DNA of 64,000 nt from an uncultured Candidatus Saccharibacteria bacterium (GTDB taxonomy: Bacteria; Patescibacteriota; Saccharimonadia; Saccharimonadales; Saccharimonadaceae): positions 29,965-93,964 of the forward strand of contig CANENS010000001.1 in NCBI GenBank assembly GCA_947428935.1, written 5' to 3'. The notes beneath the pieces are model-generated. The model worked only from the letters and a program-made list of their open reading frames with translations, was not told the origin of the DNA and searched no databases. Of the stretch, positions 6,348 to 38,230 are shown one piece after another. The translations under genes were made by a program, and so were the position numbers. Numbering within the stretch: the first letter of the stretch is position 1; every line of letters begins with the position of its first letter.

Positions 6348-6500
6348 TCTATACTTGAGCGGCGGAGAGGGTGGTGGTAAAAGCACATACTACTACGAGA
6401 TAGGTCGAGATTAGAAAGGTCAAGAATTAGATAATAAGCGTAACGGGTGTTGTTTGCGGGTTGAGCGGACCAACTATAAAGTCAAACATAAAATGTTGAA
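6348..6500 (-). repeat. Orphan VR-like cassette 2 (decayed, type B end), convergent with cassette 1
   Basis: Minus strand reads YSWSAQPANNTRYAYYLILDLSNLDLSRSSMCFYHHPLRRSSI; 3' end matches cassette at 28820 at 21 of 24 nt; 5' part has a stop/indels. Confidence 0.7.
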
Positions 6501-7118
6501 ACTATAATGTCTGTGGAAAACTTTGGCGTTGGTGGAAAAGTGGTGGAAAACTTTTGCTCCTGTTGAACAGGGAAGAAGGATTCTACTTGTGGAAAACTCT
6601 GCCAAGAAAGCTTAAAAATATGAAAGAAAATGTCAAAAAACTCTTGTAGTTTTTGGGGAAATTGTTTATACTTAAGTCAGTGGACGAACACCCACACAAA
6701 CAGATAAAATAACTACAAAAATTATCCTAAAATAAAAGAAAATACAAAAATTTAGTGAAATATAAGTAGGTTTTAGCTGCGAGGATTCACCCACTTGGTA
6801 TCGTAAGATTGTAGATTAACAAGGTTTGAGACTGGACAACTAGGAGTTTCGGCGCGCGTTTGGGTTACGCGAAATCTAAGCCAATATGCACCTCGAAAAA
6901 AACACCTCCCAATTAACTCTATAGATTTGCACTTGTGCGAATCTCAACCACTCATTTACACTATAAGTCTCTCAACGGTCGCGTATTGTGATTAGCTTCG
7001 GCTGGTCGGGTCGCGATGGATCTAAAAAGTGTATGATGTTAAATAAACAGCAAAGAAAACAAAACCGCGGAAGTTTCTAGTTGCACGGTCTCAAACAATG
7101 AGTGTATAATATACACAT

Positions 7119-8021
7119 ATGGAAGAACTTCATCAGCCAGTGTTGTTGTCGGAAGTACTCGAAGTTTTGCAGCCGAAGCCGGGCGAGTCGTATTTGGATT
7201 TGACGGCGGGGTATGCGGGGCATGCGAGTGAAGTTTTGGATGTGACACGGAATTATAAGGATGCAGTTTTGGTCGATCGGGATCAAAATGCGGTCGAAGT
7301 ACTTGAGGAGCGGTTTGTGAGTAAGCCGATTCGGATAGTGAAGGCGGATTTTTATGATGCGGTGTTGCAGGAAATTGAGTGTGGAAATACTTTCGACATG
7401 ATATTAATGGATTTTGGAGTTTCTTCTCCGCAGCTAGACAGAGCGGAACGGGGTTTTTCCTTCGCGAAAGATGGTCCGTTGGATATGAGAATGGATCGGA
7501 CGCAAGAGTTGGATGCTGGAGTAATTATCAATAAATGGGGCGAACAGCGTATCGTTAGCATCTTGGAGAAATATGGCGAAGAAAAGTCAGGTTTTGCGAA
7601 AATGATTGCGCGGGAGATTGTGCACGGACGGCCTTGGCAGTCGACGAAGCAGTTGGGGGAGGCTTTGGCGAAGTACGGTGGAGGCGGACGAGTGCACCCG
7701 GCGACGCGGACTTTCCAGGCGATTCGGATCGCGGTGAATAATGAGTTGGAGCTGATTGCTTGGACTTTGCCGCTGGTCTTGAAGGTTTTACGGCCAGGAG
7801 GGCGCGTAGCGGCGATTACTTTTCATAGTCTAGAAGATCGGTTGGTGAAAGATTGGCTGAAAGCCGAGACCACGAAGGGGGAAGAGTCGGAACTCGTGCT
7901 ACTGACGAAAAAACCGATTACTGCGGGAGATCAGGAGTTGTTTATCAACCCGAGAGCGAGAAGCGCGAAACTACGGGCGGCGCGTAAAAGATCGGACGAT
8001 AGTCTGTCGTTCGTGCGGTAG
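7119..8021 (+). CDS. rsmH: 16S rRNA m4C1402 methyltransferase RsmH (MraW)
   Basis: HQPVLL, DLTAGYAGH, DFGVSSPQLD, ITFHSLEDR, NPRARSAKLR. Confidence 0.97.
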   Translation: MEELHQPVLLSEVLEVLQPKPGESYLDLTAGYAGHASEVLDVTRNYKDAVLVDRDQNAVEVLEERFVSKPIRIVKADFYDAVLQEIECGNTFDMILMDFGVSSPQLDRAERGFSFAKDGPLDMRMDRTQELDAGVIINKWGEQRIVSILEKYGEEKSGFAKMIAREIVHGRPWQSTKQLGEALAKYGGGGRVHPATRTFQAIRIAVNNELELIAWTLPLVLKVLRPGGRVAAITFHSLEDRLVKDWLKAETTKGEESELVLLTKKPITAGDQELFINPRARSAKLRAARKRSDDSLSFVR

Positions 8022-8247
8022 AGTGTGGAGACTTAGCCAAGCACCAAACTAAACGTCGAGCTTTTCGTGGGGTTAGTGGACGTTCATAGGCGATGGCAGC
8101 AGGTCGGAGCGCAGTGGAGGTTTTTGAGCTTTAGCAAAAAGGTTTTACGCGCGTTAGGACCGGAGTCAGGAGCTTTTTGAGCGCATAATCACTAGCCGCA
8201 GGGCCGATAAAAATAAAAAATAAAATAAATCAAAAAAGGAGGCAATT

Positions 8248-8319
8248 ATGCCACGACAAATCATTGTAACTAGCAACCGTTCACGCGCACAAAAAGTGAA
8301 GGTTCATTTTGCAAAATAA
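8248..8319 (+). CDS. Candidate 23-aa small protein MPRQIIVTSNRSRAQKVKVHFAK
   Basis: AAGGAGG RBS 5 nt before the ATG; lies in the rsmH-ftsL spacer. Confidence 0.45.
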   Translation: MPRQIIVTSNRSRAQKVKVHFAK

Positions 8320-8890
8320 GTCGCGAACGACTATAAAAATAACAAAAGCGTAGCCGATGGGGCGGGTCGGCTATAACATAAAATTAGAAAAAGTATGACT
8401 TAGCCGTAAGCGCAGGCTGCGAGTTATGATCCAGTCAATATTTTGTTTCTGGAAGATAGTGAAAAGCTTCTAGAGGCATGGACAATTTTCGAACTGACGT
8501 TAGAATAGAGAGATCCTCAGTTTTGCGATGCAAAATTATGGATCACATAACAGAGAATTGGAAACGTTGGTTTCGTGGAGAGATTGATTTTTGATCGATT
8601 CCAAATGCGCTGACATGGGTCGACAGGCCCACCACGGTTGTAGAGTTAATGCCGTAGAGTGTTTTACAATACCTTATACATACATGACCTTCCCGGAAGT
8701 TGTGCGGGAGATTGATAATTCCGTCTCCCGCTTTCGACCGGTCTACACTCGACTCGGACAACCTATTTACGGCAAAAATACGGATTCTATGCGGAGTTTG
8801 TATGCGAGGGTAGTTTTTGATGCAGAGATGCTGAAATTGCTCAGGAAAACAATAAAACCTAAATAAAATAAAAACAGCGAGGAAATTTTA

Positions 8891-9238
8891 ATGAGACCCC
8901 AGACCTATACAACTAGAAGGGCGACGACGAACGGAAGTGGTTGGTCGCGTAACCAAAATATAGTGCGCCATAAGGCAAAGAGTTTGGGCTCGATTTCCAA
9001 TGCAATGATTGTCGGTTTATTGGTTTTGATTGTCGGATTAATTTATGTGTCGCAGGGAACGAAAGCTACGAATTATGACTATGAGCTTTCGGCGATTGAA
9101 GATGAAATTTCGGAACTTGAGGCGAAAAAAGAGGATTTGGCGGTCGAGAAGGCGCGTTTGACATCGATTGCTTCGTCCGAAAACAGTACGGTGGCGCAAA
9201 CTATGGAAGGTGCGAGTGTTGGGGGGTATGCAGAATAG
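8891..9238 (+). CDS. ftsL: FtsL-like cell division protein
   Basis: Single TM helix then leucine coiled coil; positioned between rsmH and ftsI. Confidence 0.7.
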   Translation: MRPQTYTTRRATTNGSGWSRNQNIVRHKAKSLGSISNAMIVGLLVLIVGLIYVSQGTKATNYDYELSAIEDEISELEAKKEDLAVEKARLTSIASSENSTVAQTMEGASVGGYAE

Positions 9239-9322
9239 GATTTATCAGTAAGGGTGTTCGAAGCGGCGTTTCTACGGAAGCGCTGTTTTTCTGATGGAAC
9301 TTGGTATAATACTTTTTTGCTT

Positions 9323-9433
9323 GTTCGCAGCGGGTATGTCAATTCTCATAATGGACGCCTGGTCGGCACTGGCCTTAACGGTTATGTATGGTCATCACGT
9401 AATAGCGTTAATGCTCACTGTATCTATCGCCTT
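9323..9433 (+). repeat. Orphan VR-like cassette 3 (5' half only)
   Basis: GTTCGCAGCGGGTATGTC start; VRSGYVNSHNGRLVGTGLNGYVWSSRN...IYRL; similarity is lost after ~9433. Confidence 0.8.
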
Positions 9434-9928
9434 ACTGATTTGCGTTTTTCAAATGTTTTGGTCGAAGATCAAGCAACGCAGCTTGGGCGGAAGATAGATC
9501 GTTTGAATAATGATTTGTATAGACCGGAAAGCCTTCTGGAAGAAAAGGAAGATTAGCTAAATCGTAAAATGCTCTAGCTTGCTAGGGCATTTTTGCATAC
9601 TTTTTGGTGTTTATGGCTATTTTAGCCGGTCTAGGTGGTTTTTAGTATAAAACGCATACTGGTAGCGGTTTATTGTTAGAAAGGGCTTCTGGAGGCTCTA
9701 AAGAGGTTTCTAGGGGTATTGTAGAATAGGGCTAGGAGGCACGGATAGGCATTTTAAGGCTATTCTGGCTTCTGAGAGCCGTATAACGGCGTATGATGAT
9801 GTTTATGGCTAGAATGGGCTGAAAATGGTGAAATATAGCGAAATAGCGGGAGTTTTTGGGGCTTAGCTCTGAAAATATGCGCTCAGGCTGGTAAAGTGGG
9901 GGAGATTGTAGTATTATTAAGAATAAGC

Positions 9929-11686
9929 ATGTCGGATAACAAAAAAATGCTTAATCGGAATAAAGTCTTGCGCGTGGGGCTGCTGTTGGTTATGGCCGTG
10001 ATTGTGACGCGGCTGTTTTTTATCCAAATTGTGGAGCACGACGAATGGCTGGCGAAGGCGGCGGCGCAGCAGACTTTGCAGAGTACGATTGTGGCGAAGC
10101 GGGGCGAAATTTATATGATGGATGGGGATGAGCCGGCGCCGGTGGTGATGAACGCGACGGTCTATACCGTGATTGTGGATCCGATGCTGGCGAATCGGGA
10201 AGAGATTGAAACGCAACTGAATCAGATTTTGGGCGAGCGGCGTATGGCGGAATGGGATGAGGTATTTGCTGATAAGACGCGGCGGTATTATATCGTGGCG
10301 AAGAATTTGCCGCGGGCTCAGGCGGAGCAAATTGCGAAGGGGGAGCTGGAGGGAGTTTGGTTGCAGGGAAATACAGAGCGAGTTTATCCGGAAGGGGATT
10401 TGGGTGCGAAAGTACTGGGGTTTGTGAATGCGGATGGGGTTGGTCAATATGGGGTGGAAGGGTCGTTGAATGAGCGCTTGGCAGGGAAGGATGGATTGTT
10501 GCGAACGGTGAAGGATATTAATAACGTGGCGCTTTCGATCGGAGAAGGGAATATTAAAACACCGGCGGTCGATGGTGAAAATATTGTCTTGACGATTGAT
10601 AAAACCATGCAGCATAATATTGAGCGGTTGATTCAAGAGCAGACCGGTAAGGTGGGTTTTTCGCATATTAGTGCGCTAGTGATGGACCCGCGTGATGGGC
10701 GGATTTTGGCTATGGCCGATACGCCGAGCTATGATCCGGGTGATTTTGGTAATGTGGAGAGTGCGGAGGTTTATATTAATCACGTGATTGAAGATCCGTA
10801 TGAGCCGGCGAGTGTTTGCAAAACTTTTACTTTTGCAGCTGGTTTGGAGTACGGGGTTTTGACGCCGGAGTCAACTTATGTCAATCAAGGTGTGACTTAT
10901 GTTGACAATTGGCCGATTAAGAATGCAGCACAAAATCCAGGCTTGTTGGGAACGACTACGATTCAGACGGCACTGAATTGGTCGTTGAATACGGGTTCGA
11001 CGCAGGCCTTGCGTTGGTTGGGCGGGAGCGAGGTGGAAATTAATGCTCAGGGGAGGGAACGTTTATATGAATACTTTCATAACCATTTTGGGTTAGGGCA
11101 GGAAACGGGAATCGAACTTTATGAAGCGACCGGAACTGTTATGGAACCGAATGCGGAAGTGTATGGTATTGATTCAACTTATGCCAATATGACTTTTGGA
11201 CAGAATATGCAAGTGACGATGCTGCAGACGGCGGCGGGGTTTGCTTCGGTGGTAAATGGTGGGCAGTATTTTGCGCCGACGATTATCGCAGGAAAGATGG
11301 AGAATGGGGAATTTGTCAAGGCGGAGCAGCGGGAAGCCGTGCGGGAGGCGGTGCGTCCGGAAACTAGTGCCACTATGCGTGAAATGCTGTATAATACAAG
11401 GAGAACTTGGCGAGGGAACGGGACTGATCCGGCTGGGTATTATGTCGGTGGGAAGACCGGAACAGCGCAGGTGATTCGGAATGGGGCGTATGTGTTGGAT
11501 GAGACCGTGGCGACTTACGTTGGTTTTGGCGGAACGGAAGGGGAATTGCCAGAGTATGTTATAATGGTGAGAGTGTGGGAGGACGGCAAGAAGGCAGAAG
11601 GTGATACGCACGCAGTGGTGGTTTTTAATGCGCTGAAGGGGTATGTGCAGGATCGGTTACGGGTGCGGCCGGCAGCAACGGAATAA
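9929..11686 (+). CDS. ftsI: Class B penicillin-binding protein FtsI/PBP3
   Basis: N-terminal TM, RGEIY, PASVCK (SxxK), SLN (SxN) and KTGTAQ motifs; dcw context. Confidence 0.9.
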   Translation: MSDNKKMLNRNKVLRVGLLLVMAVIVTRLFFIQIVEHDEWLAKAAAQQTLQSTIVAKRGEIYMMDGDEPAPVVMNATVYTVIVDPMLANREEIETQLNQILGERRMAEWDEVFADKTRRYYIVAKNLPRAQAEQIAKGELEGVWLQGNTERVYPEGDLGAKVLGFVNADGVGQYGVEGSLNERLAGKDGLLRTVKDINNVALSIGEGNIKTPAVDGENIVLTIDKTMQHNIERLIQEQTGKVGFSHISALVMDPRDGRILAMADTPSYDPGDFGNVESAEVYINHVIEDPYEPASVCKTFTFAAGLEYGVLTPESTYVNQGVTYVDNWPIKNAAQNPGLLGTTTIQTALNWSLNTGSTQALRWLGGSEVEINAQGRERLYEYFHNHFGLGQETGIELYEATGTVMEPNAEVYGIDSTYANMTFGQNMQVTMLQTAAGFASVVNGGQYFAPTIIAGKMENGEFVKAEQREAVREAVRPETSATMREMLYNTRRTWRGNGTDPAGYYVGGKTGTAQVIRNGAYVLDETVATYVGFGGTEGELPEYVIMVRVWEDGKKAEGDTHAVVVFNALKGYVQDRLRVRPAATE

Positions 11687-11720
11687 AAGAGATGGTAAAA
11701 AGGAAAAATAAGTAATAATT

Positions 11721-12749
11721 ATGGAAGATACGCTCAATAATGAGACATTTTATGGATTAATTTTGGCGCTTTCGGCTTTTTTCTTGGCGACCTTTTTGAC
11801 GCCGATTTATACACATTTCGCTTATAAATATAAATTTTGGAAAAAGCAGAAGAAAACCACGGCTACGGGCGATGCCTTGCCGATTATGACAAAACTGCAC
11901 GAGAAGAAGTTTGCGCGAGCTTTTCCGACTATGGCGGGGGTGATTGGGGTGGTGACGGTGGCGATTGTGACCTATGTCTGCAACTGGAACCGAGAGCAAA
12001 CCTGGCTACCGCTGGCGGGGTTTTTGGGCGGGAGTTTGGTAGGATTGATCGATGATTTGATTAATGTTTTTGGTTCGGGTCGGGGCGCAGCGGGACTGCG
12101 TGCACCGGTGAAATTCTTTATGATCTCGGCGATTGGGGTGATTCTGGGCTGGTGGTTTGCGGTGAAATTAGGCTGGACGGCGATCGAAGTGCCGTTTCTG
12201 GGTGATTGGCACGTCGGTACGGTGGGCATGATTCTGATTTTTGCCTTTGCGGTGGTGGCGACTTCGAATGCGGTTAATATCTCGGACGGTCTGGATGGGT
12301 TGGCTGGTGGGTTAGCCATGCTTTCCTATGCGGCTTATGGTGCGATTGCACTGTTTCAGGGACAGTGGATGTTAGCGGGCTTTTGTTTGACGGTGGTGGG
12401 GTGGTTGCTGTCGTATATTTGGTTTAATGTGCCTCCAGCGCGCTTTATGATGGGGGACGTGGGCTCTTTTGCGATTGGCGCTGGACTGGGCGTGGTGGCG
12501 ATGATGACGAATGCCTTTTTCCTCTTGCCGATTATTGGCTTTTTATTTGTGGTTGAAGCAGGATCTTCGCTGTTGCAAATGTTTTGGAAAAAAGTGTTCA
12601 AGAAGAAACTTTTTATCTCGGCGCCGATTCATCATCATTTGGAGGCGACTGGTTGGGGAGAAGCCAAGATTGTCATGCGATTTTGGGTGATTGCAGGAGT
12701 ATTGGCGATTGTGGGCGTGTTTCTGGCGGTACAAGGGGGAATTGTATGA
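11721..12749 (+). CDS. mraY: Phospho-N-acetylmuramoyl-pentapeptide transferase MraY
   Basis: PTMAG, GLIDD, NAVNISDGLDGLA, MGDVGS, APIHHH. Confidence 0.96.
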   Translation: MEDTLNNETFYGLILALSAFFLATFLTPIYTHFAYKYKFWKKQKKTTATGDALPIMTKLHEKKFARAFPTMAGVIGVVTVAIVTYVCNWNREQTWLPLAGFLGGSLVGLIDDLINVFGSGRGAAGLRAPVKFFMISAIGVILGWWFAVKLGWTAIEVPFLGDWHVGTVGMILIFAFAVVATSNAVNISDGLDGLAGGLAMLSYAAYGAIALFQGQWMLAGFCLTVVGWLLSYIWFNVPPARFMMGDVGSFAIGAGLGVVAMMTNAFFLLPIIGFLFVVEAGSSLLQMFWKKVFKKKLFISAPIHHHLEATGWGEAKIVMRFWVIAGVLAIVGVFLAVQGGIV

Positions 12750-13002
12750 TGAGAGGGGGCTTTGTAGCGGTTTTTTTGGCTATTTTTGGAAAGACAAGCT
12801 TTTTGGCGAAAAAGTTTAAGAAAAGCCTTGTAACTCTGAGGGTGGTGAATAAAGATGCGTTTGCGCGATCTTTTGAGCGATGCAGGAGGGACTATTTTGT
12901 TTCCGTAAATTATGCCAAAAATGGGAATTACACATATTTTAAGGCAAAGAGTATTGACTTTTTTGATAACGTGTGCTATAATGGAAGGATAGGGTCCTGA
13001 TA

Positions 13003-14217
13003 ATGCGGAAACATAAGAGCGACCGGATTATTGGAGCGTTGACGGTGATTTTGCTGGGGATGGGGCTGATCGTGATTTATGCGATTGGTCCGATGCGGGC
13101 GAACGTTATGAATGCGACTTATGGAACCGATTATAGCGATAATTATTTCTTCTTCCGGCAGTTGTTTAGTGTGGTTTTGTCGTTAGCGGTGATTGTGCTG
13201 GCTTTTCGGGTACCGTACCGGATTGTGCGGAAGTTCGGTAAGCTGTTTCTAGTATTAGGGTTGTTGCTTTGTGCGCTTTTGGCAGTATTATCTTGGATGA
13301 ATAGCCCCTTGGTGAGTTGCCAGTTGGGCGCTTGCCGCTGGTTTGATTTGGGTGGGATGTTGAGTTTGCAACCGGCGGAGATTTTGAAGTTGGGGCTAGT
13401 GCTGTATTTGGCGGGGTTTTTGGCAGAAAAGCGCAAGAACGGCATGTTGGATAGTATAGTGGATTTTTGGTTGCCGTTCGGGATTGCTTGTGGTCTGTCT
13501 CTGGTGTTTGTGATTGTGATTCAGAAGGATTTAGGAACGGGAACAACTTTGATTGCAATTATTATGGCGATGCTATTTATGAGTGGGGTGAGTTTGAAAA
13601 AATATTTGGTGGTGTGTGTTTTGATTTTGATAGCGGGGGCGATAGCGATTTTGGGGTCGCCTTATCGCCGCGAGCGATTGTTAACTTTTAGTTCGGATGA
13701 ATCGAGCGATTCTTATCATATTGAGAACGCGATGATTGCGATTGGTACCGGCGGATTTTTAGGGGTAGGGATTGGTAATAGCGTGCAGGCGACCGGTTAT
13801 TTGCCGGAGTCGATTAACGATTCCGTGTTTGCGGTTATGGGCGAGACCTTCGGTTTTGTCGGGCTAGTGGCGATCATTGCGAGCTTTACGTTGCTGCTGA
13901 TGCGGTTGTTGCGTACGGCGAATTATTTACATGACGATGAGGAGTCGCTGGTGGTGATTGGGGTTTTTGCCTGGGCGGCGGCGCATGTGATCGTGAATAT
14001 TGCCGCGATGACTAGTCTGATCCCGTTGACTGGGATTACGTTGCCGTTGCTTAGTTATGGTGGAACTAGTATGCTATTTATGGCGGCGGCTTTGGGCTTA
14101 GCTTTACAATTATCTTGTTATACGAGCCGGGAGCCGCGTAAGGAACAACCGCGCGTTTCACGCAAGGCAGTAGAGAATGCTTCGCCGCGGCGTCGTCAAT
14201 TACGGAGGAATGTGTGA
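13003..14217 (+). CDS. ftsW: SEDS family protein FtsW
   Basis: QPAEILK, QKDLGT, LPESINDSVFA, PLTGITLPLLSYGGTS. Confidence 0.93.
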   Translation: MRKHKSDRIIGALTVILLGMGLIVIYAIGPMRANVMNATYGTDYSDNYFFFRQLFSVVLSLAVIVLAFRVPYRIVRKFGKLFLVLGLLLCALLAVLSWMNSPLVSCQLGACRWFDLGGMLSLQPAEILKLGLVLYLAGFLAEKRKNGMLDSIVDFWLPFGIACGLSLVFVIVIQKDLGTGTTLIAIIMAMLFMSGVSLKKYLVVCVLILIAGAIAILGSPYRRERLLTFSSDESSDSYHIENAMIAIGTGGFLGVGIGNSVQATGYLPESINDSVFAVMGETFGFVGLVAIIASFTLLLMRLLRTANYLHDDEESLVVIGVFAWAAAHVIVNIAAMTSLIPLTGITLPLLSYGGTSMLFMAAALGLALQLSCYTSREPRKEQPRVSRKAVENASPRRRQLRRNV

Positions 14218-15488: not shown

Positions 15489-15496
15489 AATCAATA

Positions 15497-16060
15497 ATGC
15501 GTGGGCGAAATAATGAATCGAAACGAATGCGTGCTGGTCGTACGATCGTGGCGGAGCGCGAGCGGATTGAATCTGATTCGGAGCGAATGCAGGCTCGTAA
15601 GAAGGTGAAGCGCAAGCATACAACGTTGGTAATCCTGGTGCTGTTGATTTTGGTGGCGATTGGGCTGGCGATTTTCTTAGGCATGAAGGAGCTCTCGAAG
15701 GAATACGTGGTGATTGGCGATGCGAAGGAGAAAAGCGAACCCTATGTAGTACAGGCTATGATTGTCGACGAAGATAATCGTGGGCAGATTTCGATGCGGG
15801 TGAATCAATATATTGGTGAATTAGAGCAAGCGTTTGCGGATTTGGGATATAAAGTGGTAAAAGTAACGCTGCCGACTGGTAAAAGCCGTGAGCTCTATGT
15901 GGATTTAGAGGGTAGAGAAACCTTTTTCAAAGTTAGTATGGAGCGGGGTGCAGCTGTGATAGCTGAAGATGCTGCGAGGATGATTCGTTATCTGGACGGT
16001 CACGATATACACCCGGTTTATGTTGATGTACGAGTAGAGGGAAAGGGGTATTATCAATAG
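15497..16060 (+). CDS. FtsQ/DivIB-like single-pass division protein
   Basis: Basic N-tail, one TM, C-terminal YVDVRVEGKGYY resembles the FtsQ C-terminus; follows murG. Confidence 0.6.
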   Translation: MRGRNNESKRMRAGRTIVAERERIESDSERMQARKKVKRKHTTLVILVLLILVAIGLAIFLGMKELSKEYVVIGDAKEKSEPYVVQAMIVDEDNRGQISMRVNQYIGELEQAFADLGYKVVKVTLPTGKSRELYVDLEGRETFFKVSMERGAAVIAEDAARMIRYLDGHDIHPVYVDVRVEGKGYYQ

Positions 16061-16333
16061 AATTCGGTTTCGGCTCATCACGTTGAAATTTTAATTTCGC
16101 TATTGACTTTTTTGGTAATATGTGCTATAATAAGGGTAGAGGGTGGTTTTTGACGGGCTGATTTTTCTAAACGCTAGTTCTCTGATGAAAACTAGGGAAT
16201 TACGTTCAAAGAAAATGAATAAAAGACTTAGTGATCAGATCAACACAACGAATCATAATGGCTGACTATCGTGCTTGTGTTTGCATATAAATGATGTATG
16301 TAATAATGTGTGTGCTTTTTGGCATTGCTTATA

Positions 16334-16510
16334 ATTATCATTGTTGCCTACGCTCGAGCAGCGGAGGGGAGGAGTTCCAGCGATCGTAGCTGTTGGACGG
16401 GTGGACGCCAGAAGCAGTAAAGACAAGATAGTATGCATAACGAAGACTAGAAGAATTAGCCCGGGACGACCATTCGTAACCGTTGCTACTGATGTAGACG
16501 TACCCGCGAC
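16334..16510 (-). repeat. Orphan VR-like cassette 4 (type B end; 24-nt internal deletion, 2-nt frameshift)
   Basis: Minus strand: GYVYISSNGYEWSSRANSSSLRYAYYLVFTASGVHPSNSYDRWNS, then shifted PLRCSSV. Confidence 0.85.
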
Positions 16511-20621: not shown

Positions 20622-20681
20622 AACTTTAGCTTATCGCTCCAACTCTTATTAAAATGTTTTTCTTTTTGACGATAGAATGAA

Positions 20682-21713: not shown

Positions 21714-21902
21714 CAGGTTCCCTTCGTTTTTTATCCTTGTGTGGTATTTTATTAAAATAATATTGAATTTTTCTTATGATAGCATATTTGCATATACGTG
21801 TCAACAGTGAAATTCAATATTATGTTTATATGTTTTATTATATCACTTTTATTCGAATTTAGCGGAAAATATTTTACTATTTTTGAATTTGGTTATGTTT
21901 TT

Positions 21903-22021
21903 CCCGAACAAAACCCGAACAGCCCTCAAATAACCCTCGAATAGGGTCTGAACAAAGCCAAACGAAGTTTAAACAAACACTGAGGAATACTTGAATAGAC
22001 GCTGCAATATGCATCGAATAG
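21903..22021 (+). repeat. Degenerate 11-bp periodic direct-repeat array (RAAY-N7)
   Basis: GAAC/GAAT/AAAC at 21906, 21917, 21928, 21939, 21950, 21960, 21971, 21993, 22016. Confidence 0.55.
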
Positions 22022-22166
22022 ATGACAGACTGGCGCTATGTAGGAAACGAATTTTCGTTAAAAAATCGAACAAATATCTAGCAGTCTTCAAGTCTGGCTT
22101 GTAAAGTCTTCTTAATAAATGCTTCTCTTACCTATAGATCTCAAAAACACAGTAAATTACTCGAAA

Positions 22167-24617
22167 TTACTTTGATATCTGGCTTCTGGAGCGTCGAGAA
22201 GGGACTTTGGGAGTGGTTTTGGTAGTCTTGGCTTTGGCGCCCGTACTTTTGCTTTTGGTGCTTCCTGTAGCCTTAGGTGAGCTCTTAGAGCTGGTTTTAT
22301 TAGTCTTTTTGGCGGTTTTGCGCATGAAACGCCGTCCCTTGCCGCTAGATTTTTCATCCAGCATTTTTTGTGCTTCGGCAAGCGTGATCTTTTTTGGGTC
22401 TTGGTCTTTGGCGATCTTTACATTATTGAAACGCCCTGGGCCTTTTACGTAAGGTCCGTAAGCGCCATTAATAATCATGATATCACCCCAGTCGGCGATG
22501 ATGGTATCGAGCTTTTCTTGCAAGAGTTTTTCGGCGGTTTTGAAACTGACAGTGTAGGGGTCGTGATTTTTGAGTTGAATATTGTACTTTCCAGCCTTAA
22601 GATACGGCCCAAAAGGCCCGCTGGAGGCGATAATCACCAGGCCGTCTTTGGTTTTGCCGAGTTCACGGGGTAGAGCTGGCAGCTCGAGTTGTTTGATTGC
22701 TTCGGCGAGGGTGACGGTTTTTTCGGTTTTTCCCTGGGGCAAGGGGGCGAAGCGCGGTTTTTGACCAGAAGTTTTTTCGTTATCGCCAAGTTGAATGAAG
22801 CCGCCATTGCGTCCGACTTTAGCGTAAATCGGCATTCCAGATTTGGGATCTTTTCCCAGCTCGCGCGCGTTATTATAGCGGGCGGCGTCGTCGGATTTTA
22901 CCACCTCTTTGGAAAAAGGACCATAAAAATCGCGCAGCATTTTCACTCGTTCGAGTTTATGCTCGGCAATTTTATCGAGATCTTCTTCGATATTGGCCGT
23001 AAATTGATAGTCGATAATATTATTGAAATTGTCGATCAGAAAGCCAGCTAATAATTCCCCGATTGAGGTAGGGAGTAATTTGCCCTTGGTTGAGCCAGTT
23101 TTTTCGGTGGTAATTTCGCGCTTAACCTTGCCTTTTGCTAAAGTAATCTTGATTACTTCGCGTGGTTCGCCCTCTGATTCTCCTTTGACGACGTAACCAC
23201 GATTTTGGATTGCTGACATGATGGTGGCGTAAGTCGAAGGGCGCCCGATGCCGAGTTCCTCGAGTTTTTTGACCAGTGAGCCTTCGGTATAGCGCGCCGG
23301 AGGTTTAGCAAAACTTTGTTTGGCGGTGATACTCTCGGCTTTTAGTTGGTCGCCAGTCTCGAGTGGCGGCAGTTCATCTTCTTTCATGCGTCCAGTTACC
23401 TTCAAAAACCCGTCAAAAACGATTACTTCCCCTTTAGCTTCAAAAGTATAGTCCAGCGCAGCTTTGCTGAGCTCCAGCTCGGCTTGCGACTCCTTGGAAA
23501 CCTGAATTTTGACAGTAGTTTTGGCGGTTTTGGCATCGGCCATTTGGGTTGCCAAAGTACGATTCCGGATCAATTTATATAGTTTGCGTTCAAAATCGTT
23601 CTTCCCGGCGGTTTCCTGCTCGATATGGGTGGGTCGGATCGCTTCGTGTGCCTCTTGCGCGCCGGCAGATTTGGTTTTAAAATTGCGCACTTTGAGGTAT
23701 TCTTTGCCATAATTATTTTCGATGTAGCTAGCGGTCTGCGCGATGGCCTGCTTGGAGAGATTGAGGCTATCAGTACGGTGATAAGTAATCAAACCGGCTT
23801 GATAGAGGGCCTGAGCGGCTTGCATAGTGGTACGCGAAGAAAAACCGAGCTTTGAGTTGGCTTCGATTTGCATAGAAGCGGTGGTGAAAGGCGGACTGGG
23901 GCGGCGGACACCATCGCTTTTTATAACATCTGTTATAATATACTTCTTTGCCTTAGCGAGTTGCTCTAGGTATTCGGTCACTTTCTTTTCGGAGTCAAAA
24001 CTATGATTCAGCGTGCCCGCGATCAGCTCGTCCTTTTCTTTATAAAAATTACCAGTCACCTTAAAAGTCGATTTACTGGCAAATTTCTCGATTTCCTGTT
24101 CCCTTTCCACGATCAAGCGGAGCGCCGGGCTCTGGACACGTCCTGCCGAAATCGCGCCGGGAACTTTGCGTCGCACGACGCCCGAGAGATCATAACCGAC
24201 TAGCATATCGAGGGTTTGGCGCGCTTGTTGCGAATGTACCATATCCATGTCGACTTTGCGCGGATTTTTAATCGCGGCTTCGAGCGCTGGCTTAGTAATT
24301 TCGTGAAAAGTGATGCGACTAGTGTTTTTGGGCAATTTCAGTACTTCCATAAGATGCCAAGAAATGGCTTCGCCTTCGCGGTCTTCGTCAGTCGCCAGCC
24401 AGACGGTGTCGGCGGCTTTGGCAGCGCGTTTGAGCTCGTTGATGATTTTGGTATGATCAGGGTCAATTTCGTAAGTGACATCGAAAGTCTCTTTGTCAAC
24501 ATGGGTATCTTTGCGAATATGCCCGACCGAGGCCAGGACATGAAAATCTTTGCCCAGATACTTCTCAATCGTATGGGCTTTGGCAGGAGACTCGACAATC
24601 ACTAAATTTTTCGGCAT
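22167..24617 (-). CDS. topA: DNA topoisomerase I
   Basis: LVIVESPAKA, ATDEDREGE, AGRVQSPAL, ITYHRTD, GIGRPSTYA; lysine-rich C-terminal tail. Confidence 0.97.
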   Translation of the reverse strand: MPKNLVIVESPAKAHTIEKYLGKDFHVLASVGHIRKDTHVDKETFDVTYEIDPDHTKIINELKRAAKAADTVWLATDEDREGEAISWHLMEVLKLPKNTSRITFHEITKPALEAAIKNPRKVDMDMVHSQQARQTLDMLVGYDLSGVVRRKVPGAISAGRVQSPALRLIVEREQEIEKFASKSTFKVTGNFYKEKDELIAGTLNHSFDSEKKVTEYLEQLAKAKKYIITDVIKSDGVRRPSPPFTTASMQIEANSKLGFSSRTTMQAAQALYQAGLITYHRTDSLNLSKQAIAQTASYIENNYGKEYLKVRNFKTKSAGAQEAHEAIRPTHIEQETAGKNDFERKLYKLIRNRTLATQMADAKTAKTTVKIQVSKESQAELELSKAALDYTFEAKGEVIVFDGFLKVTGRMKEDELPPLETGDQLKAESITAKQSFAKPPARYTEGSLVKKLEELGIGRPSTYATIMSAIQNRGYVVKGESEGEPREVIKITLAKGKVKREITTEKTGSTKGKLLPTSIGELLAGFLIDNFNNIIDYQFTANIEEDLDKIAEHKLERVKMLRDFYGPFSKEVVKSDDAARYNNARELGKDPKSGMPIYAKVGRNGGFIQLGDNEKTSGQKPRFAPLPQGKTEKTVTLAEAIKQLELPALPRELGKTKDGLVIIASSGPFGPYLKAGKYNIQLKNHDPYTVSFKTAEKLLQEKLDTIIADWGDIMIINGAYGPYVKGPGRFNNVKIAKDQDPKKITLAEAQKMLDEKSSGKGRRFMRKTAKKTNKTSSKSSPKATGSTKSKSTGAKAKTTKTTPKVPSRRSRSQISK

Positions 24618-24667
24618 ATATTATTCATCATACTGGGTTGTAGTAATCGCGTCAACTAGAAAAATAG

Positions 24668-24688
24668 TCCCAACCAGAGGTTGGGACG
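24668..24688 (-). terminator. Intrinsic terminator GTCCCAACC-aga-GGTTGGGAC
   Basis: 9-bp perfect stem with T-run on the minus strand; same stem recurs at 54668. Confidence 0.75.
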
Positions 24689-24744
24689 GAAGATGAAAAA
24701 ATGCACCGACAATCTGCCAGTGCATTTCAATGTACGAAACTTAG

Positions 24745-25437
24745 TTAGATCATATTGCTAATTAGTGGCAAATTATCGTGAATTTCCAGAAAAGTCTTCC
24801 GACCAAAGGAGTATTGATAGTCGATACGACTTGGCTCTTTTTCATAATAGTCTGGAAAAATCATTTTTGCCAACATCCTAGCGAAGCGATTTTTTGGTGC
24901 AGGATGCGTTATGGTGTGTGTTTCACTGTACCAAAGTTCATAATGACGGTTCTTGTCGCCGCTCCGATGTATTATGCTGTGAAATTCGCCACTAAAACAG
25001 CGACTGACATTGATACTAAAGGTTTCAAATTGGCAATCCTCTTCGTCACTGACTGGAACATCGATGACGATGCGAAACTCATGTTCGCGGATTCCTGCCA
25101 AATGCCAATCATCGTCTTTATTGACATACTGTAGCTCAACGCGATCAGGGTGTACTCGAAATCCTGACAGTTTCCATGTTGGGTCTGAGCCGTGGACGAT
25201 TTGTGAGAGGTTTGCTTGAAAAGCGTCCTCTTTAGCTTTCCCGTCTTCATCATAGCTTAATCTGACTATTCTCGCGTAATTCAACGGATCATCGTTGCTC
25301 TCATGTTTCATGCAGGCGGAAGTAATTTTTAAGGTTGGCAATTCAAAATCAGGGTCATTATAGTAGTAGTTCAGTCCTCCTGCAATACTGAAGCCAATCC
25401 AGCTATTTAATTCAATTCTGCCACTGATAGATAACAT
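24745..25437 (-). CDS. Orphan hypothetical protein (230 aa)
   Basis: Own promoter (25481-25509), GAAAGGAAGG RBS and terminator. Confidence 0.7.
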   Translation of the reverse strand: MLSISGRIELNSWIGFSIAGGLNYYYNDPDFELPTLKITSACMKHESNDDPLNYARIVRLSYDEDGKAKEDAFQANLSQIVHGSDPTWKLSGFRVHPDRVELQYVNKDDDWHLAGIREHEFRIVIDVPVSDEEDCQFETFSINVSRCFSGEFHSIIHRSGDKNRHYELWYSETHTITHPAPKNRFARMLAKMIFPDYYEKEPSRIDYQYSFGRKTFLEIHDNLPLISNMI

Positions 25438-25622
25438 TTCTACCTTCCTTTCCGTAACATTTTAAGGTACTTATACTTCAATTATAGCACACTTTGTTCA
25501 AAAAGTCAATAGTTTTTTGATGAATTAGCTTAAATTACGGGATTGCAAGATTGATAATAAGGTCGAGGTTTGTAGCGAGAACCTTGAAAAAGGCCGACTT
25601 TCGCAGTCGACCTTTGGAAAAA

Positions 25623-26108
25623 CTACTGAGGCAGAGTGTCTATGCCTTCGCTGCGCCAATAGTAGATGTTGCCGTAGCGATCTTGAATGATCAGCTCTGG
25701 ATCTTCTTGCTCGAGATTCGCGGCGAAATAGATCAGGTTGAGGTAATCGCGCGTCCGATCATTATCTTTTCGGGGGCTTTTGTCAATGCTAAAACTCAGC
25801 TCGATCATTGCGCAAGCGCGAGTTTTTTCATGCCAATGATCGTCGAAGTACCCCTGATGCGGACCGTGCACGAGCGGTATCTGCTCTTTTGCGTCATTGA
25901 TGCCTTGCCAAGCGCGTTCGAGCGCAATTTTTTCGATTTCGAGCTCTGGATCAAAGGCAATTGGTATTTTTTTGTAACGCTCTGCCCTGTCGGCGCCAGG
26001 TTGATACTCGCTCACCGTGGTATTCTCTAGGATTTTGCGCAACTTTTCCAGCGCTGAGTCAAGAGAAGCCTGTTCGATTTCCTTGTTAAGGTTGTTTTGA
26101 TTGTTCAT
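25623..26108 (-). CDS. Orphan hypothetical protein
   Basis: AAAGGGGG RBS before ATG 26108; promoter in module 26230-26336; hairpin terminator near 25590-25612. Confidence 0.7.
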   Translation of the reverse strand: MNNQNNLNKEIEQASLDSALEKLRKILENTTVSEYQPGADRAERYKKIPIAFDPELEIEKIALERAWQGINDAKEQIPLVHGPHQGYFDDHWHEKTRACAMIELSFSIDKSPRKDNDRTRDYLNLIYFAANLEQEDPELIIQDRYGNIYYWRSEGIDTLPQ

Positions 26109-26229
26109 ATTTAATCCCCCTTTGTCAAAAGACACTCTTGGTCGGTTGAAAAACGATTTCCTGCCTCTTAAAGTGCTTGTCTTCTAGTAACATTGAATTT
26201 GCCTATTCTTGAAATAGGCCTATCTTTCT

Positions 26230-26336
26230 ATTATAGAACACATTGTCTAAAAATCAAGGTTTTGTATAAATAATTTGTTCAATTTTAGGTATATTTGTGA
26301 AAATTGTTGTAAAATCAACAATAAAAGCCTTGACAA
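26230..26336. promoter_or_regulatory. Divergent promoter module copy A
   Basis: Leftward -10/-35, AATTTGTTCAATTTT box, TTGTTG..CAACAA inverted repeat, rightward TTGACA; 4 copies in the window. Confidence 0.7.
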
Positions 26337-26391
26337 AGGCCAACTTGTCGAAAAAAACTGGCCTGCCCTAGAGGGGCAGGCCAGAATCGTC

Positions 26392-27018
26392 TTATACGCC
26401 TTTTTCAACGGCCTTGACGAAGCCGCTGGAGTCGAAGCTTCTGTGGCTTTCTTGGGCGTAATGCGCCCATTGATACAGAAACTCTGGGTGACTACGCAAA
26501 TACTCGTGTTCATCCTGACGTATCACTTCAGGCCGCTCAATTGACACTTCTGTTACGCCACTAAGTTGGTTGTCTTCCCTGATGTGGAAAGGCGTGTCGG
26601 TTTTGATAACGATGCTCTGAACGCTATAATTATACTCATCGATCACGCGCCCGGCTAACAGCGTTCCTATTCTGCCAGCGAACAGACGGGCAGGGTCCGT
26701 GACTATGTAATATGGGTAATATGGTGAAAGATAAAAAACTATTTCGCTCCCAATTGCGAAATGCCCTTTCGGCCGTAAGTCGCAGAGAAGTGGTTTTTTC
26801 TCCGCTGGATCGATCATCTTCGCGAGTACCACCATTGTGTCAGTAGCTGTCTGGTTTTTCGCAACTTGTCCGGACAATAGATACCGCATGCACAGTTCTT
26901 TGAGTCCTTTCGGTTCAGCGCATCTGTGGTTTTCTGCGTCTAATCTGCGTTGCATCCAATACCGGTAAACCTTGCTAACGTTATTGTACCCCAAGGAAAT
27001 CAATTCTTCAGTCGGCAT
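26392..27018 (-). CDS. Orphan hypothetical protein; 5' end possibly frameshifted
   Basis: Open frame to 27063; RBS-backed ATG at 27073 is out of frame and stops after 17 codons, 2 nt before ATG 27018. Confidence 0.6.
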   Translation of the reverse strand: MPTEELISLGYNNVSKVYRYWMQRRLDAENHRCAEPKGLKELCMRYLLSGQVAKNQTATDTMVVLAKMIDPAEKKPLLCDLRPKGHFAIGSEIVFYLSPYYPYYIVTDPARLFAGRIGTLLAGRVIDEYNYSVQSIVIKTDTPFHIREDNQLSGVTEVSIERPEVIRQDEHEYLRSHPEFLYQWAHYAQESHRSFDSSGFVKAVEKGV

Positions 27019-27192
27019 TTTACAGATTTTCTTTTTTATTGATTGTTCTTGGCACCTTGACAACTTTTAACATAATATTTCCCCCTTTTGTTAAAATTTG
27101 AAGACGATTTTAATTTTCGATGCGGCAAAAAAACGCCACATTGTCTTTATATTGGCATAGATTGTGGTTCTTGCCAAGATTATTTTTGCTTT

Positions 27193-27394
27193 ATTATTAC
27201 AGTCTAGCTAGGCAGCGGAGGGGGAAGGCGTCCCAGCGATTATCGTTGTTAGACGGGTAGATGCCAGACGCATCGAAGGCGAGGTAGTATGCAGAACGAA
27301 CACCAGAAGAATTAGCTAGGGACGACCATCCGTAGCCGCTGATGCCAGAGACCCTCAAACGACCGTAATTAATATTGACGTACCCGCTGCGAAC
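27193..27394 (-). repeat. Orphan DGR-VR-like cassette 6 (intact, type A end)
   Basis: VRSGYVNINYGRLRVSGISGYGWSSLANSSGVRSAYYLAFDASGIYPSNNDNRWDAFPLRCLARL*; no start codon or RBS. Confidence 0.9.
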
Positions 27395-27486
27395 ACAAAT
27401 GGTTCTGAACGATAAGGTTTAAATGTCTCGAGGCTGTCAGATACCGAAAAATCTTAAAAATGGTATTAACGTTTTTTCAAAACGCC

Positions 27487-27802
27487 AAAAAGCCCCAGAA
27501 TTTCTAGGTAAGGGTGGGCATCACCTATACTCTTCTGAGGCTATTTGGCCCTATAACGCATCGTCGTTCGACTCCGGAGGTCCGGAAGCGCGACCCACCT
27601 CACACAGCTTGGGGCCCGCCGGTTATAGGGGTTGCTATGCTCTCGAAGCGACCCTAAAAGTGGAGGTAGTACTTATAATCTATGACCTTAGAGAAATCAT
27701 AGACCTTAGGGGTTTCAAAAGCACGCAACTTCTGATACTCTAATGAGTAACCAGAAATTTGTTGATTATTTAGGTGCAGTTGGAGTTAATTAACTCTAAC
27801 TA
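27487..27802 (-). ncRNA. Candidate ~315-nt structured ncRNA of unknown family
   Basis: Perfect TTGACA-17-TATAAT promoter (27809-27837), several hairpins, terminator-like end, no minus-strand ORF of 60 aa or more. Confidence 0.45.
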
Positions 27803-27830
27803 ATAAGCATTATAGCACACGGAGTATTAT

Positions 27831-28727
27831 ATGTCAACACTTTTTTCACACTTTTTTTCAAAAAACAACGAAATTCGACCCCAAAAGGCTGATTTTACAG
27901 AGGTGTTGAGCACTATTGCGGTTATGCCTAAAATGTTGTATTTTTACGGAAAAATGCCCCAAAATCGGCCAAAATCGGTCGCGATTGTGGGCACCAGAAA
28001 GCCTACTAAATATGGCTCGGAAATCGCTTATGATTTGGCCTATAAAGCCGCTAAACGTGGCGCGGTGGTGATCTCGGGACTCGCTTATGGTATTGACTCG
28101 ATTGCGCATCGCGGAGCTTTGGCGGCGGGTGGGGTAACGGTGGCAGTGCTGGGAACGCCGATTGACCAAATTTATCCGCGCGAGCACGAAGGTTTGGCGC
28201 AGGAGATCGTCGAAAAAGGCGGTATGGTGATGAGTGAATTGCCTCGAGGAGCGAAATATTATGCAAAAACTTGCTTTTTGCAGCGGAATCGGCTGATTTC
28301 GGGTTTGGCGGACGTGGTGGTGATCGTGGAGGCGGCGGAACGAAGTGGTTCGCTCAACACTGCGATGCATGCGTTGGAACAGGGGCGAGAGCTTTTTGCG
28401 GTGCCGGGCGATATTACAAGGGTGAATTCCAGAGGTTGTAATCGCCTGTTGGCTCAGGGCGCTGGGATTTATACTGAGCCAGAAGATGTGTTGGACTTGC
28501 TTTTTCCGCCGACTGAGGTGGCTCAGAGAGAGCAAAAGCGGCTGCTTTTTGGCGATAATTCGGGAGAAACTGCGATTTTGCGGGCGATTGCGGCCGGCGA
28601 GCGTGATGGCGAAAAACTGGCTGAAGCGGCACGGATGGAAGCAAGAATTTTTAATCAGAACATAACTATGCTAGAAATCAAGGGGCGAGTACGGGCTTTG
28701 GGTGCTAATCGTTGGTGTTTAGCATAA
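27831..28727 (+). CDS. dprA: DNA-processing protein DprA
   Basis: VAIVGTRKPT, ISGLAYGID, AVLGTPID, RNRLISGL, SGSLNTA; C-terminal winged helix. Confidence 0.95.
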   Translation: MSTLFSHFFSKNNEIRPQKADFTEVLSTIAVMPKMLYFYGKMPQNRPKSVAIVGTRKPTKYGSEIAYDLAYKAAKRGAVVISGLAYGIDSIAHRGALAAGGVTVAVLGTPIDQIYPREHEGLAQEIVEKGGMVMSELPRGAKYYAKTCFLQRNRLISGLADVVVIVEAAERSGSLNTAMHALEQGRELFAVPGDITRVNSRGCNRLLAQGAGIYTEPEDVLDLLFPPTEVAQREQKRLLFGDNSGETAILRAIAAGERDGEKLAEAARMEARIFNQNITMLEIKGRVRALGANRWCLA

Positions 28728-28819
28728 AAACTACAATAATGACCCTCATCGTGATTTCTTTCGTTTAAGACCACTATGACAAAACTTATGTCTAAAGATT
28801 AACTTAATCAAGCAATATG

Positions 28820-29017
28820 TACTGTCTATACTCGAGCAGCGGAGGGGGAAGCCGTACCAACGAGCATCGCTGTGCGATGGGTATATCCCGGCACCATAAG
28901 TACGGAAGTAATAGGCGATCGCCCTGTTAGTGCCATGAGACGTTGACGACCATATATCTGTGTTGATGCCAGGGCGCCCCAAACGACCGCCACCGACACT
29001 AACGTACCCGCTGCGAA
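28820..29017 (-). repeat. Orphan DGR-VR-like cassette 7 (intact, type B end)
   Basis: IRSGYVSVGGGRLGRPGINTDIWSSTSHGTNRAIAYYFRTYGAGIYPSHSDARWYGFPLRCSSID; begins just after a terminator. Confidence 0.9.
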
Positions 29018-38217: not shown

Positions 38218-38230
38218 GCGGCAGTATGAT

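Follow-up and report, generated by a model that had tools for sequence, protein, structure and literature searches.

Two 3' ends, probably one template: dispersed gene-less variable repeats of a diversity-generating retroelement in a Saccharibacteria-like genome

Introduction

How many templates feed a family of repeats whose copies end in two different ways? The question is raised by a 64,000-nucleotide stretch of DNA (hereafter the window; C1:29965-93964, where C numbers denote contigs) from a Saccharibacteria-like genome of 1.10 Mb in 27 contigs (96% complete), in which short copies resembling the variable repeats (VRs) of a diversity-generating retroelement (DGR) finish in one of two 3' ends, herein called type A and type B. 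A first-pass annotation of the window had read these copies as DGR VRs and proposed that at least two template repeats (TRs) feed the family. Genome-wide, the DGR nature of the VRs was borne out by a reverse transcriptase (RT), an Asn-rich TR and adenine-biased mismatches, whereas the proposal of two or more templates was not. Judged from sequence, the system is best described as a DGR with one template and more than 100 gene-less VRs, coupled to a faithful copying of cassettes that reaches a single expressed gene. We regard the core of this description, namely a DGR-derived VR family with one template for both end types and with faithful copying on top, as probable.

A dispersed family of gene-less cassettes

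Ten copies of the cassette lie in the window; both boundary motifs are present in seven of them, and the other three are truncated or decayed (Table 1). The motif CTCCGCTGC occurs eight times in it against an expectation of 0.42 (the largest count in a shuffle was 2, and 0 of 100 shuffles reached 8), one occurrence, at 41463-, lying outside any cassette. The six type-A and three type-B ends of the first-pass annotation were recovered where it had placed them, with every type-B copy on the minus strand. Type A reads CTCCGCTGC-CTAGCTAGAC[A/T]GTAATAAT (frame LRCLAR[L/Q]*) at 6207+, 27212-, 42425+ and 48323+, with a variant CTCCGCTGT at 53077- and a tail GATAGTGATGAA at 38402+. Type B reads CTCCGCTGC-TCGAG[T/C]ATAGAC (frame LRCSSI..) at 28823-28847, 16345-16369 and 6346-6370, where the second copy deviates to ...TCGAGCGTAGGC and the third is decayed (CTCCGCCGCTCAAGTATAGA); two of these three copies are thus 5'-truncated or decayed. 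The annotation was likewise right that the two types differ at non-A positions (CTAGC versus TCGAGCA, with a shift of +2 nt) and that no GC hairpin lies 3' of the window copies, although a 12-bp GC-rich stem does follow the full-length target outside the window.

A profile search of all stop-to-stop frames returned 157 matches in 156 frames, spread over 24 of the 27 contigs; 14 cassettes are found less than 400 nt from the end of a contig. The unit is ~195 nt long and corresponds to the final ~60 codons of a FISUMP (DUF1566-like) domain, its translation running ..RSGYVNINxGRL..GYGWSS..AYxLxF..SG..PS...RW.GFPLRC and then LAR[L/Q]* (type A) or SSID.. (type B). Each cassette begins abruptly at TTCGCAGCGG (..F/V-R-S-G): the DNA upstream of it is unrelated, whereas every base of TTCGCAGCGG, even at synonymous sites, shows at least 90% conservation over 145 copies. 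Its 3' end consists of the GC-rich block GGCTTCCCCCTCCGCTGC and an AT-rich tail. Eight single cassettes searched against Pfam and NCBIfam gave no significant family, the best match being TIGR02145 at E = 0.16 in one of them (profile positions 112-173 of 176).

Cassettes with both nucleotide boundary anchors number 135, and the frame statistics refer to this set. Their lengths are 176, 179, 182 or 185 nt, with differences in multiples of three in 134 of 135, and the coding frame is stop-free in 132 of 135, compared to 1-47 in the other five frames and 13.4 in composition shuffles. The median cassette has 10 open codons upstream of it; an in-frame ATG, GTG or TTG is absent from 80 of the 135, and an in-frame ATG is present in 26. 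Among ~155 copies overall, more than 130 are "orphans", that is, start-less and promoterless cassettes in intergenic DNA, and ~22 of the 157 profile matches are truncated or decayed. Cassettes take up ~3% of this reduced 1.1-Mb genome.

A single candidate template for both end types

The two end classes are closely related at the DNA level. Among 141 anchored 3' ends, type A is CTCCGCTGC-CTAGC-TAGACAGTAATAAT and type B is CTCCGCTGC-TCGAGCA-TAGACAGTAATAAT, so that both share the downstream TAGACAGTAATAAT and longer flanks, and the difference amounts to a 5-nt versus a 7-nt block. Since the B block is 2 nt longer, the frame is shifted, the TAA is gone and the same TAGACAGTAATAAT DNA is read as SSIDSNN. 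Allowing up to one mismatch, the genome holds 101 type-A and 25 type-B ends (reversed-pattern controls: 0), while exact A or B ends were found in 0 of 60 other genomes of the genus. Intermediate ends (TCAAGCA, TCGAACA, CTGGC, TTAGC, CTAAC) are rare; the classes are discrete and form no continuum.

A search of the genome for two TRs yielded one: when 131 cassettes were tested as template, a single copy, C3:7333-7514, was template-like. It is Asn-rich (translating RSGNININNGRLRNSGINGYGW..NPSNNNNRWNGFPLRC), holds 45 adenines, the most among 81 same-length copies, and ranks first of these 81 in its ratio of A to non-A mismatches. It is also the only copy with eight partners at no more than 6% non-A but at least eight A-mismatches, the runner-up having one. 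Its tail, CTAGCTAG-TTCCAGTCCC.., is unlike every VR tail and homologous to the tail of the RT-adjacent TR of the related genome G014. The block GGCTT(C/T)CCCCTCCGCTGCCTAGCTAG is shared by TR and VRs and is followed by ACAGTAATAAT in the VRs but by TTCCAGTCCC in the TR, a layout that matches the initiation of mutagenic homing (IMH) site and its TR counterpart (IMH*) in DGRs. When adenine-only mutagenesis of this TR was simulated, 5000 of 5000 products were stop-free. The cassette directly 3' of the RT (C2:96635-96816) was considered as the TR and rejected, having 30 A's and no near-A-only partner. Around the TR (C3:4849-12510) lie genes of the type IV pilus kind, namely two pilin-like open reading frames (ORFs; ..FTIIEVVLVLAIAG.. 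N-terminus) and PilC- and PilB/T-like ORFs, as read from translations.

The RT occupies a 449-aa open frame at C2:96891-98237(-) and shares 69.6% identity with the G014 RT over 378 aa by tblastn. It scores 38.7 bits for RVT_1 (cut-off 29.6), does not reach the cut-off of any of the group II intron, retron and Drt families, and carries IGNLTSQ at residue 301 and YVDD at 333, motifs (the former of the form [LIV]GxxxSQ) that we take to be the mark of DGR RTs. A 351-aa frame upstream of it shows 42.5% identity with its G014 counterpart. No second RT was found in this genome by tblastn with the G014 RT; a weak match at C3:63220-63456 is part of a 369-aa ORF read as tsaD-like. The whole-genome PF00078 scan missed this RT, a false negative, and the RVT_1 negatives for G010 and other genomes of the genus may be of the same kind.

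This single TR stands equally close to cassettes of both end types. Within 10% non-A divergence of it are 12 type-A copies, eight type-B copies and one other, so that one template accounts for both ends, and the two copies nearest to the TR, a B and an A, are identical over a 99-nt segment. On a tree built from non-A positions only (112 columns), 24 B tips require 19 changes compared to 22.3 +/- 1.2 when labels are shuffled, and the largest all-B clade has four members; on a tree of the trimmed cassette body the end label changes 27 times versus 31.0 +/- 1.3 in shuffles. In G014 as well, the single RT-adjacent TR is two non-A mismatches from orphans of either tail type. The stretch that sets the end type sits 3' of the sequence held in common with the TR. 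The end type would thus be a property of the recipient locus and not of the template, which explains why it is almost uncoupled from the body. A single template that accounts for both ends is an outcome that the first-pass annotation itself had named as refuting its inference of two templates, and these sequences do not support that inference.

Adenine-biased divergence, probable faithful copying and signs of selection

Mismatches to the TR are concentrated at adenines, with a rate of 0.475 per A site versus 0.226 per non-A site over 80 copies, and the closest copies differ at 15-23 A sites versus 5-6 non-A sites (e.g. 20 vs 5). Three non-A differences are common to 18-21 of 21 close copies and are therefore attributed to private changes of the TR. 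Binned by non-A divergence, seven copies lie below 5%, 14 at 5-10%, 26 at 10-15%, nine at 15-20%, 16 at 20-30% and 57 at 30-50%. Across all bins the A sites are saturated with change (0.42-0.52), while non-A divergence spans 3.7% to about 50%. The TR-near cassettes (<10% non-A) are all orphans (21 of 21), with at most 68 open codons upstream, and 13 of them are without a start codon.

A different process is visible in exact identities. The VR of the one full-length gene (C2:79407-79605) is 100% identical over 199 nt to the orphan C4:11265-11463, the identity ending at the cassette borders and the flanks being unrelated. The whole variable part is shared by eight of 9045 cassette pairs and exact segments of at least 35 nt by 30 pairs; pairs other than the eight have exact segments of 99, 93, 86, 79 or 78 nt in common, and the identity mostly stops at the borders. 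By a stricter measure, seven pairs have 0 mismatches, and in four of these seven the identity extends no more than 10 nt beyond the cassette on either side. Since identical copies cannot come from adenine-mutagenic homing, a faithful copying at the DNA level also acts. The genome contains recA, and this copying, in either direction between orphan and expressed gene, is most likely gene conversion.

The cassettes also stay open for longer than drift would allow. Simulated drift from the TR predicts 46.7 +/- 5.2 of 130 stop-free copies compared to the 132 of 135 observed, and the ratio of nonsynonymous to synonymous change (pN/pS) in A-free codons is 0.55. Together, the openness of old copies and a pN/pS below one argue for selection at the protein level, acting on the orphans or on the sequences with which they exchange.

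The full-length target gene

The rest of the protein (residues 1-449) is encoded at one place in the genome only, C2:77918-79597, a 560-aa ORF beside infB that consists of a signal-peptide-like N-terminus, a FISUMP domain and the VR, followed by a GC hairpin. It is here alone that a VR forms part of a coding gene; at more than 130 other loci it does not. The protein scores 49.7 bits against TIGR02145 (cut-off 41.65; 50.7 in the genome scan, where only one gene matches), and 22.1 against PF09603, below the cut-off of 33.9. Its VR is far from the TR, with 58 of 127 non-A positions mismatched. The hairpin is a 12-bp GC-rich stem, TTGCAGGAGCGC-GTGA-GCGCTCCTGCAA, at C2:79628-79655, and follows the full-length target and two other loci only. 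Canonical G-quadruplex (G4) motifs number 11 in the whole genome, three of them an identical GGGGGGGTGAGGGTCTCGGG (Table 1).

A phmmer search of the protein against PDB sequences gave nothing below E = 1.4, and an AlphaFold2 model of the C-terminal 337 aa, built from an 8-sequence alignment, had a mean predicted local distance difference test (pLDDT) score of 36.4 and was unusable. The closest named relative of the family's full-length protein belongs to a "Candidatus Saccharibacteria" metagenome-assembled genome. The target gene is present in metagenomes of the mouse gut, where the organism is common: 20 runs with all or part of it represent 14 studies, and at least half of the gene's sampled words occur in 16 of 24 listed public runs. 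Public metagenome contigs end at the repeat borders (2878, 2990 and 3168 of stretch L031), and contigs from one RNA library span 1461-2861 of L031, for which DNA carry-over is possible.

Sister genomes and the genus

The same family occurs in the sister species G014. There, the RT is followed by an Asn-rich cassette, and a gene-attached VR differs from it by 0 non-A and 20 A mismatches, a textbook TR/VR pair. G014 orphans differ from this TR by non-A/A mismatches of 2/20, 2/21 and 3/22 and show two tail types, being near-perfect VRs with 3-6 open codons upstream, and their 5' boundary is the 5' boundary of the G014 TR. TTTGTG stands directly ahead of every G014 cassette, and its GTG, which encodes the Val of ..YFVRSG, is a potential start; in the present genome the codon is GTT or another xTT. 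Full-length paralogues number at least six in G014 (477-559 aa) versus one here.

A genus-wide scan detected RTs in 43 of the 60 other genus genomes, and when 25 genus genomes were searched at E <= 1e-5 the expanded family returned 142 matches in G000, 54 in G014, 13 in G016 and 10 in G010. G004, in contrast, has an ordinary DGR: in the stretch examined, beside infB, there is a single TR and a single VR, the latter ending a 744-aa gene, together with an accessory ORF and an RT carrying IGNLTSQ. The full-length target of the present genome also sits beside infB; the VR of G004 is of another sequence type (..YAQSVRCVAE). Given this one-TR, one-VR arrangement, the expansion is regarded as a lineage-specific departure (G000, G014, G016, G010).

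Proposed mechanism and competing explanations

We propose that the single TR gave rise to cDNA that homed in trans into whatever DNA carried both flanking blocks. The transfer would end inside the GC-rich block, and the 3' tail (A CTAGC.., B TCGAGCA..) would be passed on with the recipient locus. On top of this, a faithful process at the DNA level, most likely conversion anchored on the conserved blocks, would copy whole or partial cassettes among loci, the expressed gene included. That the orphans are a donor library for the expressed gene and not collateral targets is an idea we find almost as easy to accept as to doubt. As a whole, a two-tier machine of an ultra-small episymbiont, in which one DGR hypermutates more than 100 promoterless cassettes in trans and gene conversion loads the variants into the expressed adhesin-like gene, the orphans being a heritable store of pre-diversified ligand-binding tips, is advanced tentatively, and we incline somewhat against it.

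Several observations weigh against this proposal. It gives no account of how sharp-ended cassettes arrive at new loci. No cassette of this genome is a textbook VR, the nearest having 5-6 non-A mismatches (~2 without the TR-private sites), and present-day DGR activity in this genome is therefore not demonstrated; the 57 of 129 cassettes that are 30-50% diverged from the TR at non-A sites need either great age or other, lost templates. The TR is not adjacent to the RT but on another contig, among pilus-like genes, and the 351-aa accessory ORF matches no Pfam or NCBIfam family. The 5' homology block of ~11-17 nt is short for RecA-type conversion, and the identity between expressed VR and orphan rests on a short-read assembly, which contigs that break at repeat borders neither confirm nor refute.

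Two templates or homing signals, each feeding its own VR family, would fit the discrete end classes (101 versus 25, few intermediates) and the weak clustering of B on the non-A tree, where the observed 19 changes are reached by 21 of 1000 shuffles. With one template-like repeat among 131 copies, both ends among the TR-near cassettes (12 A, 8 B, 1 other), a 99-nt exact segment common to the closest B and A copies, TAGACAGTAATAAT and flanks shared by both ends, and in G014 a TR equally near orphans of both tails, together with one RT by tblastn, this explanation is already largely refuted and retains hardly any of our credence. An entirely different origin, gene conversion of the pilE/pilS or vlsE type with no retroelement, would draw on the one full-length gene and ~155 start-less cassettes, exact donor-recipient identity, conserved flanking blocks, the G4 motif 3' of the expression site and recA. 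It leaves the adenine-specific mismatches to one Asn-rich copy, the DGR-type RT and the textbook TR/VR pair of G014 without a cause; as a complete explanation it is already refuted and very unlikely, and it survives as the second layer of the mechanism proposed above.

Whether the orphans do anything is harder to judge. They may be functionless fossil or collateral VRs, kept open by repeated overwriting with stop-free cDNA of the TR, with the identical pairs due to sporadic ectopic recombination: starts and promoters are missing, ~22 of 157 are truncated or decayed, A-only mutagenesis never makes stops, so that fresh copies are open by construction, and a pN/pS below one could come from an evolving TR. 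However, the 57 copies at 30-50% non-A divergence cannot be recent overwrites and yet are open (132/135 versus 46.7 +/- 5.2 of 130 under drift), lengths differ by multiples of three in 134 of 135, the cassettes fill ~3% of a reduced genome, and the expressed VR duplicates an orphan exactly, which leaves lack of function possible but distinctly doubtful. A selfish, MITE-like (miniature inverted-repeat transposable element) or retro-dispersed element derived from a VR, with the 7-bp inverted repeat GCAGCGG...CCGCTGC as its ends, would explain why cassettes in either orientation have two sharp ends at over 100 unrelated places between genes, why the orphan 5' boundary equals that of the TR in G014 and why the exact ends are species-specific (0 of 60 other genus genomes). 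We consider it improbable, as no linked transposase was found (target-site duplications were not searched for), the copies have VR-type and not TR-type tails and so are not simple insertions of TR cDNA, and upkeep of a reading frame is unexpected of a selfish non-coding element. Translation of the orphans as small ~65-aa proteins, for which one might cite the GTG (TTTGTG|CGC) before every G014 cassette, the in-frame ATG in 26 of 135 cassettes here and the promoter-like leader ahead of nine, is scarcely credible: 80 of 135 have no ATG, GTG or TTG, the codon before the cassette is xTT in this genome, and the piece is one third of a domain, without a signal peptide.

Relation to known systems

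The C-termini of DUF1566/Fib_succ_major proteins (CLec2, "category d") are a recognised class of DGR target, e.g. in the Legionella LdtA DGR (PMC5758913, PMC4159848). The present system resembles LdtA-type DGRs in that the VR is the C-terminal end of a DUF1566/Fib_succ_major-type domain in a surface protein, in its RT, Asn-rich TR and adenine-specific differences, and in the GC-rich block that ends the VR before a sequence differing between VR and TR (IMH/IMH*), with a GC hairpin after the full-length target. It is unlike them in having ~155 VR-like copies, more than 130 of which are in no gene, a TR apart from its RT and a sole full-length target that is not the copy nearest to the TR. In a 2018 survey, a DGR has at most eight target genes, all of its VRs being parts of genes (PMC5758913). 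DiGReF lists DGRs with as many as four VRs, and one VR that lies in no ORF (PMC3521204), remote loci in Thiohalocapsa PB-PSB1 led to the proposal of diversification in trans by an RT or TR encoded elsewhere (PMC10907252), and a global DGR survey could not detect remote targets (PMC8144416). The multi-VR DGRs of DiGReF and PB-PSB1 likewise use one TR for several VRs, some distant from the RT; the scale here is two orders of magnitude larger, and orphan VRs are the rule and not the exception, whereas multiple VRs in those systems arise by duplication of the whole target gene (PMC3521204, PMC10907252).

With Neisseria pilE/pilS and Borrelia vlsE/vls the family shares one expressed gene, many promoterless partial copies with conserved flanking blocks, an expressed variable part equal to a silent copy, a G4 motif beside the expression site (a G4/R-loop is reported to be required at pilE; PMC13463697) and recA. 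It departs from both in its adenine-mutagenesis signature, in cassettes dispersed singly and not gathered in a few arrays, and in a 5' homology of ~11-17 nt, and it is known here from assembled sequence. Neither a large orphan-VR library nor a DGR coupled to cassette conversion was apparent in the full-text literature searched, the main DGR survey of the candidate phyla radiation (CPR) aside.

In the usual view of DGRs, a single template rewrites one gene, or a few, in situ. The present genome holds a dispersed library of gene-less VRs; every one of the copies last written from the template is an orphan, and the sole complete target gene carries a VR that matches an orphan exactly. Should the orphans be donors, the system would link mutagenic retrohoming with silent-cassette gene conversion, two processes thought separate, and would show investment in surface variation by a bacterium with almost no spare genome, presumably for attachment to a host bacterium or evasion in the mouse gut. 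If they are by-products, they would be the first large record of off-gene DGR homing and natural data on what a DGR target needs, namely two short blocks, with no hairpin and no gene.

Features of the window and minor observations

The coordinates of the window copies and of associated elements are collected in Table 1. Within its variable part, the cassette at 6040 is three mismatches from C4:6174-6349, and its 3' flank, which resembles that of the full-length target gene, is 93.8% identical to C2:79566-79629. The copy at 16337 has a degenerate 5' anchor and a disturbed frame near its 3' end. The copy at 27193 is the window copy nearest to the TR and lies in a stop-to-stop frame of 73 aa without a start codon.

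Table 1 Positions of cassettes and associated elements. Plain coordinates refer to the window, those with a C number to contigs.
Feature	Position	Strand	Remarks
Orphan VR cassette, type-A end (..AFSLRCLARL*)	6040..6239	+	TR mismatches 20/43 A sites, 61/131 non-A
Decayed, 5'-truncated cassette, type-B-like end CTCCGCCGCTCAAGTATAGA	6346..6478	-	profile positions 21-60, 31.5 bits; tail-to-tail with the 6040 copy
Cassette 5' part (VRSGYVNSHNGRLVGTGLNGYVWSS..), 3' end lost	9323..9436	+	profile positions 1-39
Cassette, type-B variant end TCGAGCGTAGGC	16337..16496	-	profile positions 15-58, 58.4 bits
Orphan VR cassette, type-A end	27193..27393	-	TR mismatches 16/45 A sites, 12/135 non-A
Orphan VR cassette, type-B end (..GFPLRCSSIDSTYC..)	28820..29017	-	TR mismatches 27/45 A sites, 45/135 non-A
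Orphan cassette, degenerate 5' anchor TTCACAACGG, type-A variant tail	38232..38434	+	leader repeat ahead at 38111-38220
Orphan VR cassette, type-A end	42252..42452	+	TR mismatches 25/45 A sites, 47/135 non-A; leader ahead at 42116-42225
Orphan VR cassette, type-A end	48150..48350	+	TR mismatches 21/45 A sites, 52/135 non-A
Orphan VR cassette, type-A end (CTCCGCTGT variant)	53058..53258	-	TR mismatches 18/45 A sites, 16/135 non-A
Leader repeat	26230-26339, 38111-38220, 42116-42225, 52840-52949		window copies
Promoter-like element	12946-13005, 16100-16144, 33946-33989	+	near-consensus
Promoter-like element	310-367, 4707-4764, 25469-25526, 27808-27849, 42103-42160, 52838-52879, 55098-55155	reverse orientation	
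G4 motif GGGGGGGTGAGGGTCTCGGG	C2:79662-79681, C11:27794-27813, C26:7116-7135		just 3' of the GC hairpin after the target and two cassettes sharing its 3' flank
Long cassettes	C2:18406-18813, C2:34858-35295, C12:6965-7396, C11:27878-28273, C14:180-527, C23:3176-3523		and others
Tail-to-tail pairs	6040/6346, 52960/53058		prompted the shufflon reading; also in G014

About eight "long" cassettes reach 5' to residue ~450 of the full-length protein (QLPTSNTTDNGSFYALLAPYG..), and several of them share ~115 nt more with one another but not with the full-length gene; other full-length targets may have left them behind, or they may be donors whose homology is longer. At 52960-53058 a truncated cassette head (TTTTCGCAGTGAAG..) stands behind a leader (head and leader together, 52840-52985) and runs into the tail of the inverted cassette at 53058-53258. 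The same tail-to-tail geometry is seen at 6040/6346 and directly behind two full-length paralogues of G014. Such pairs, together with the inverted 7-mers GCAGCGG/CCGCTGC, prompted us to consider a shufflon, i.e. site-specific inversion, which was rejected as it cannot make exact duplicate copies.

The leader is a ~110-nt repeat with a GTTGT..ACAAC hairpin that ends in CTTGACAAG. It has 16 copies in the genome, nine of which have a cassette 5' anchor within 60 nt downstream, and it could drive transcription into some orphan cassettes.

Ordinary genes border all window copies, with translations that read as mraW, ftsI, mraY, ftsW, murG, topA and dprA. GC skew is positive in all 2-kb bins of the window but one and the cumulative skew climbs nearly monotonically (1-64000); the near-uniform skew places the whole window in one replichore, although its cassettes lie in both orientations. 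A promoter-like element, TTGACT-N17-TGTGCTATAAT followed by a GGAAGGA-like stretch, has at least ten copies in the window in both orientations. Some of these directly precede genes, e.g. the ftsW-like ORF at 13003, and another falls within the long ORF 4470..5870, which may thus truly start further downstream.

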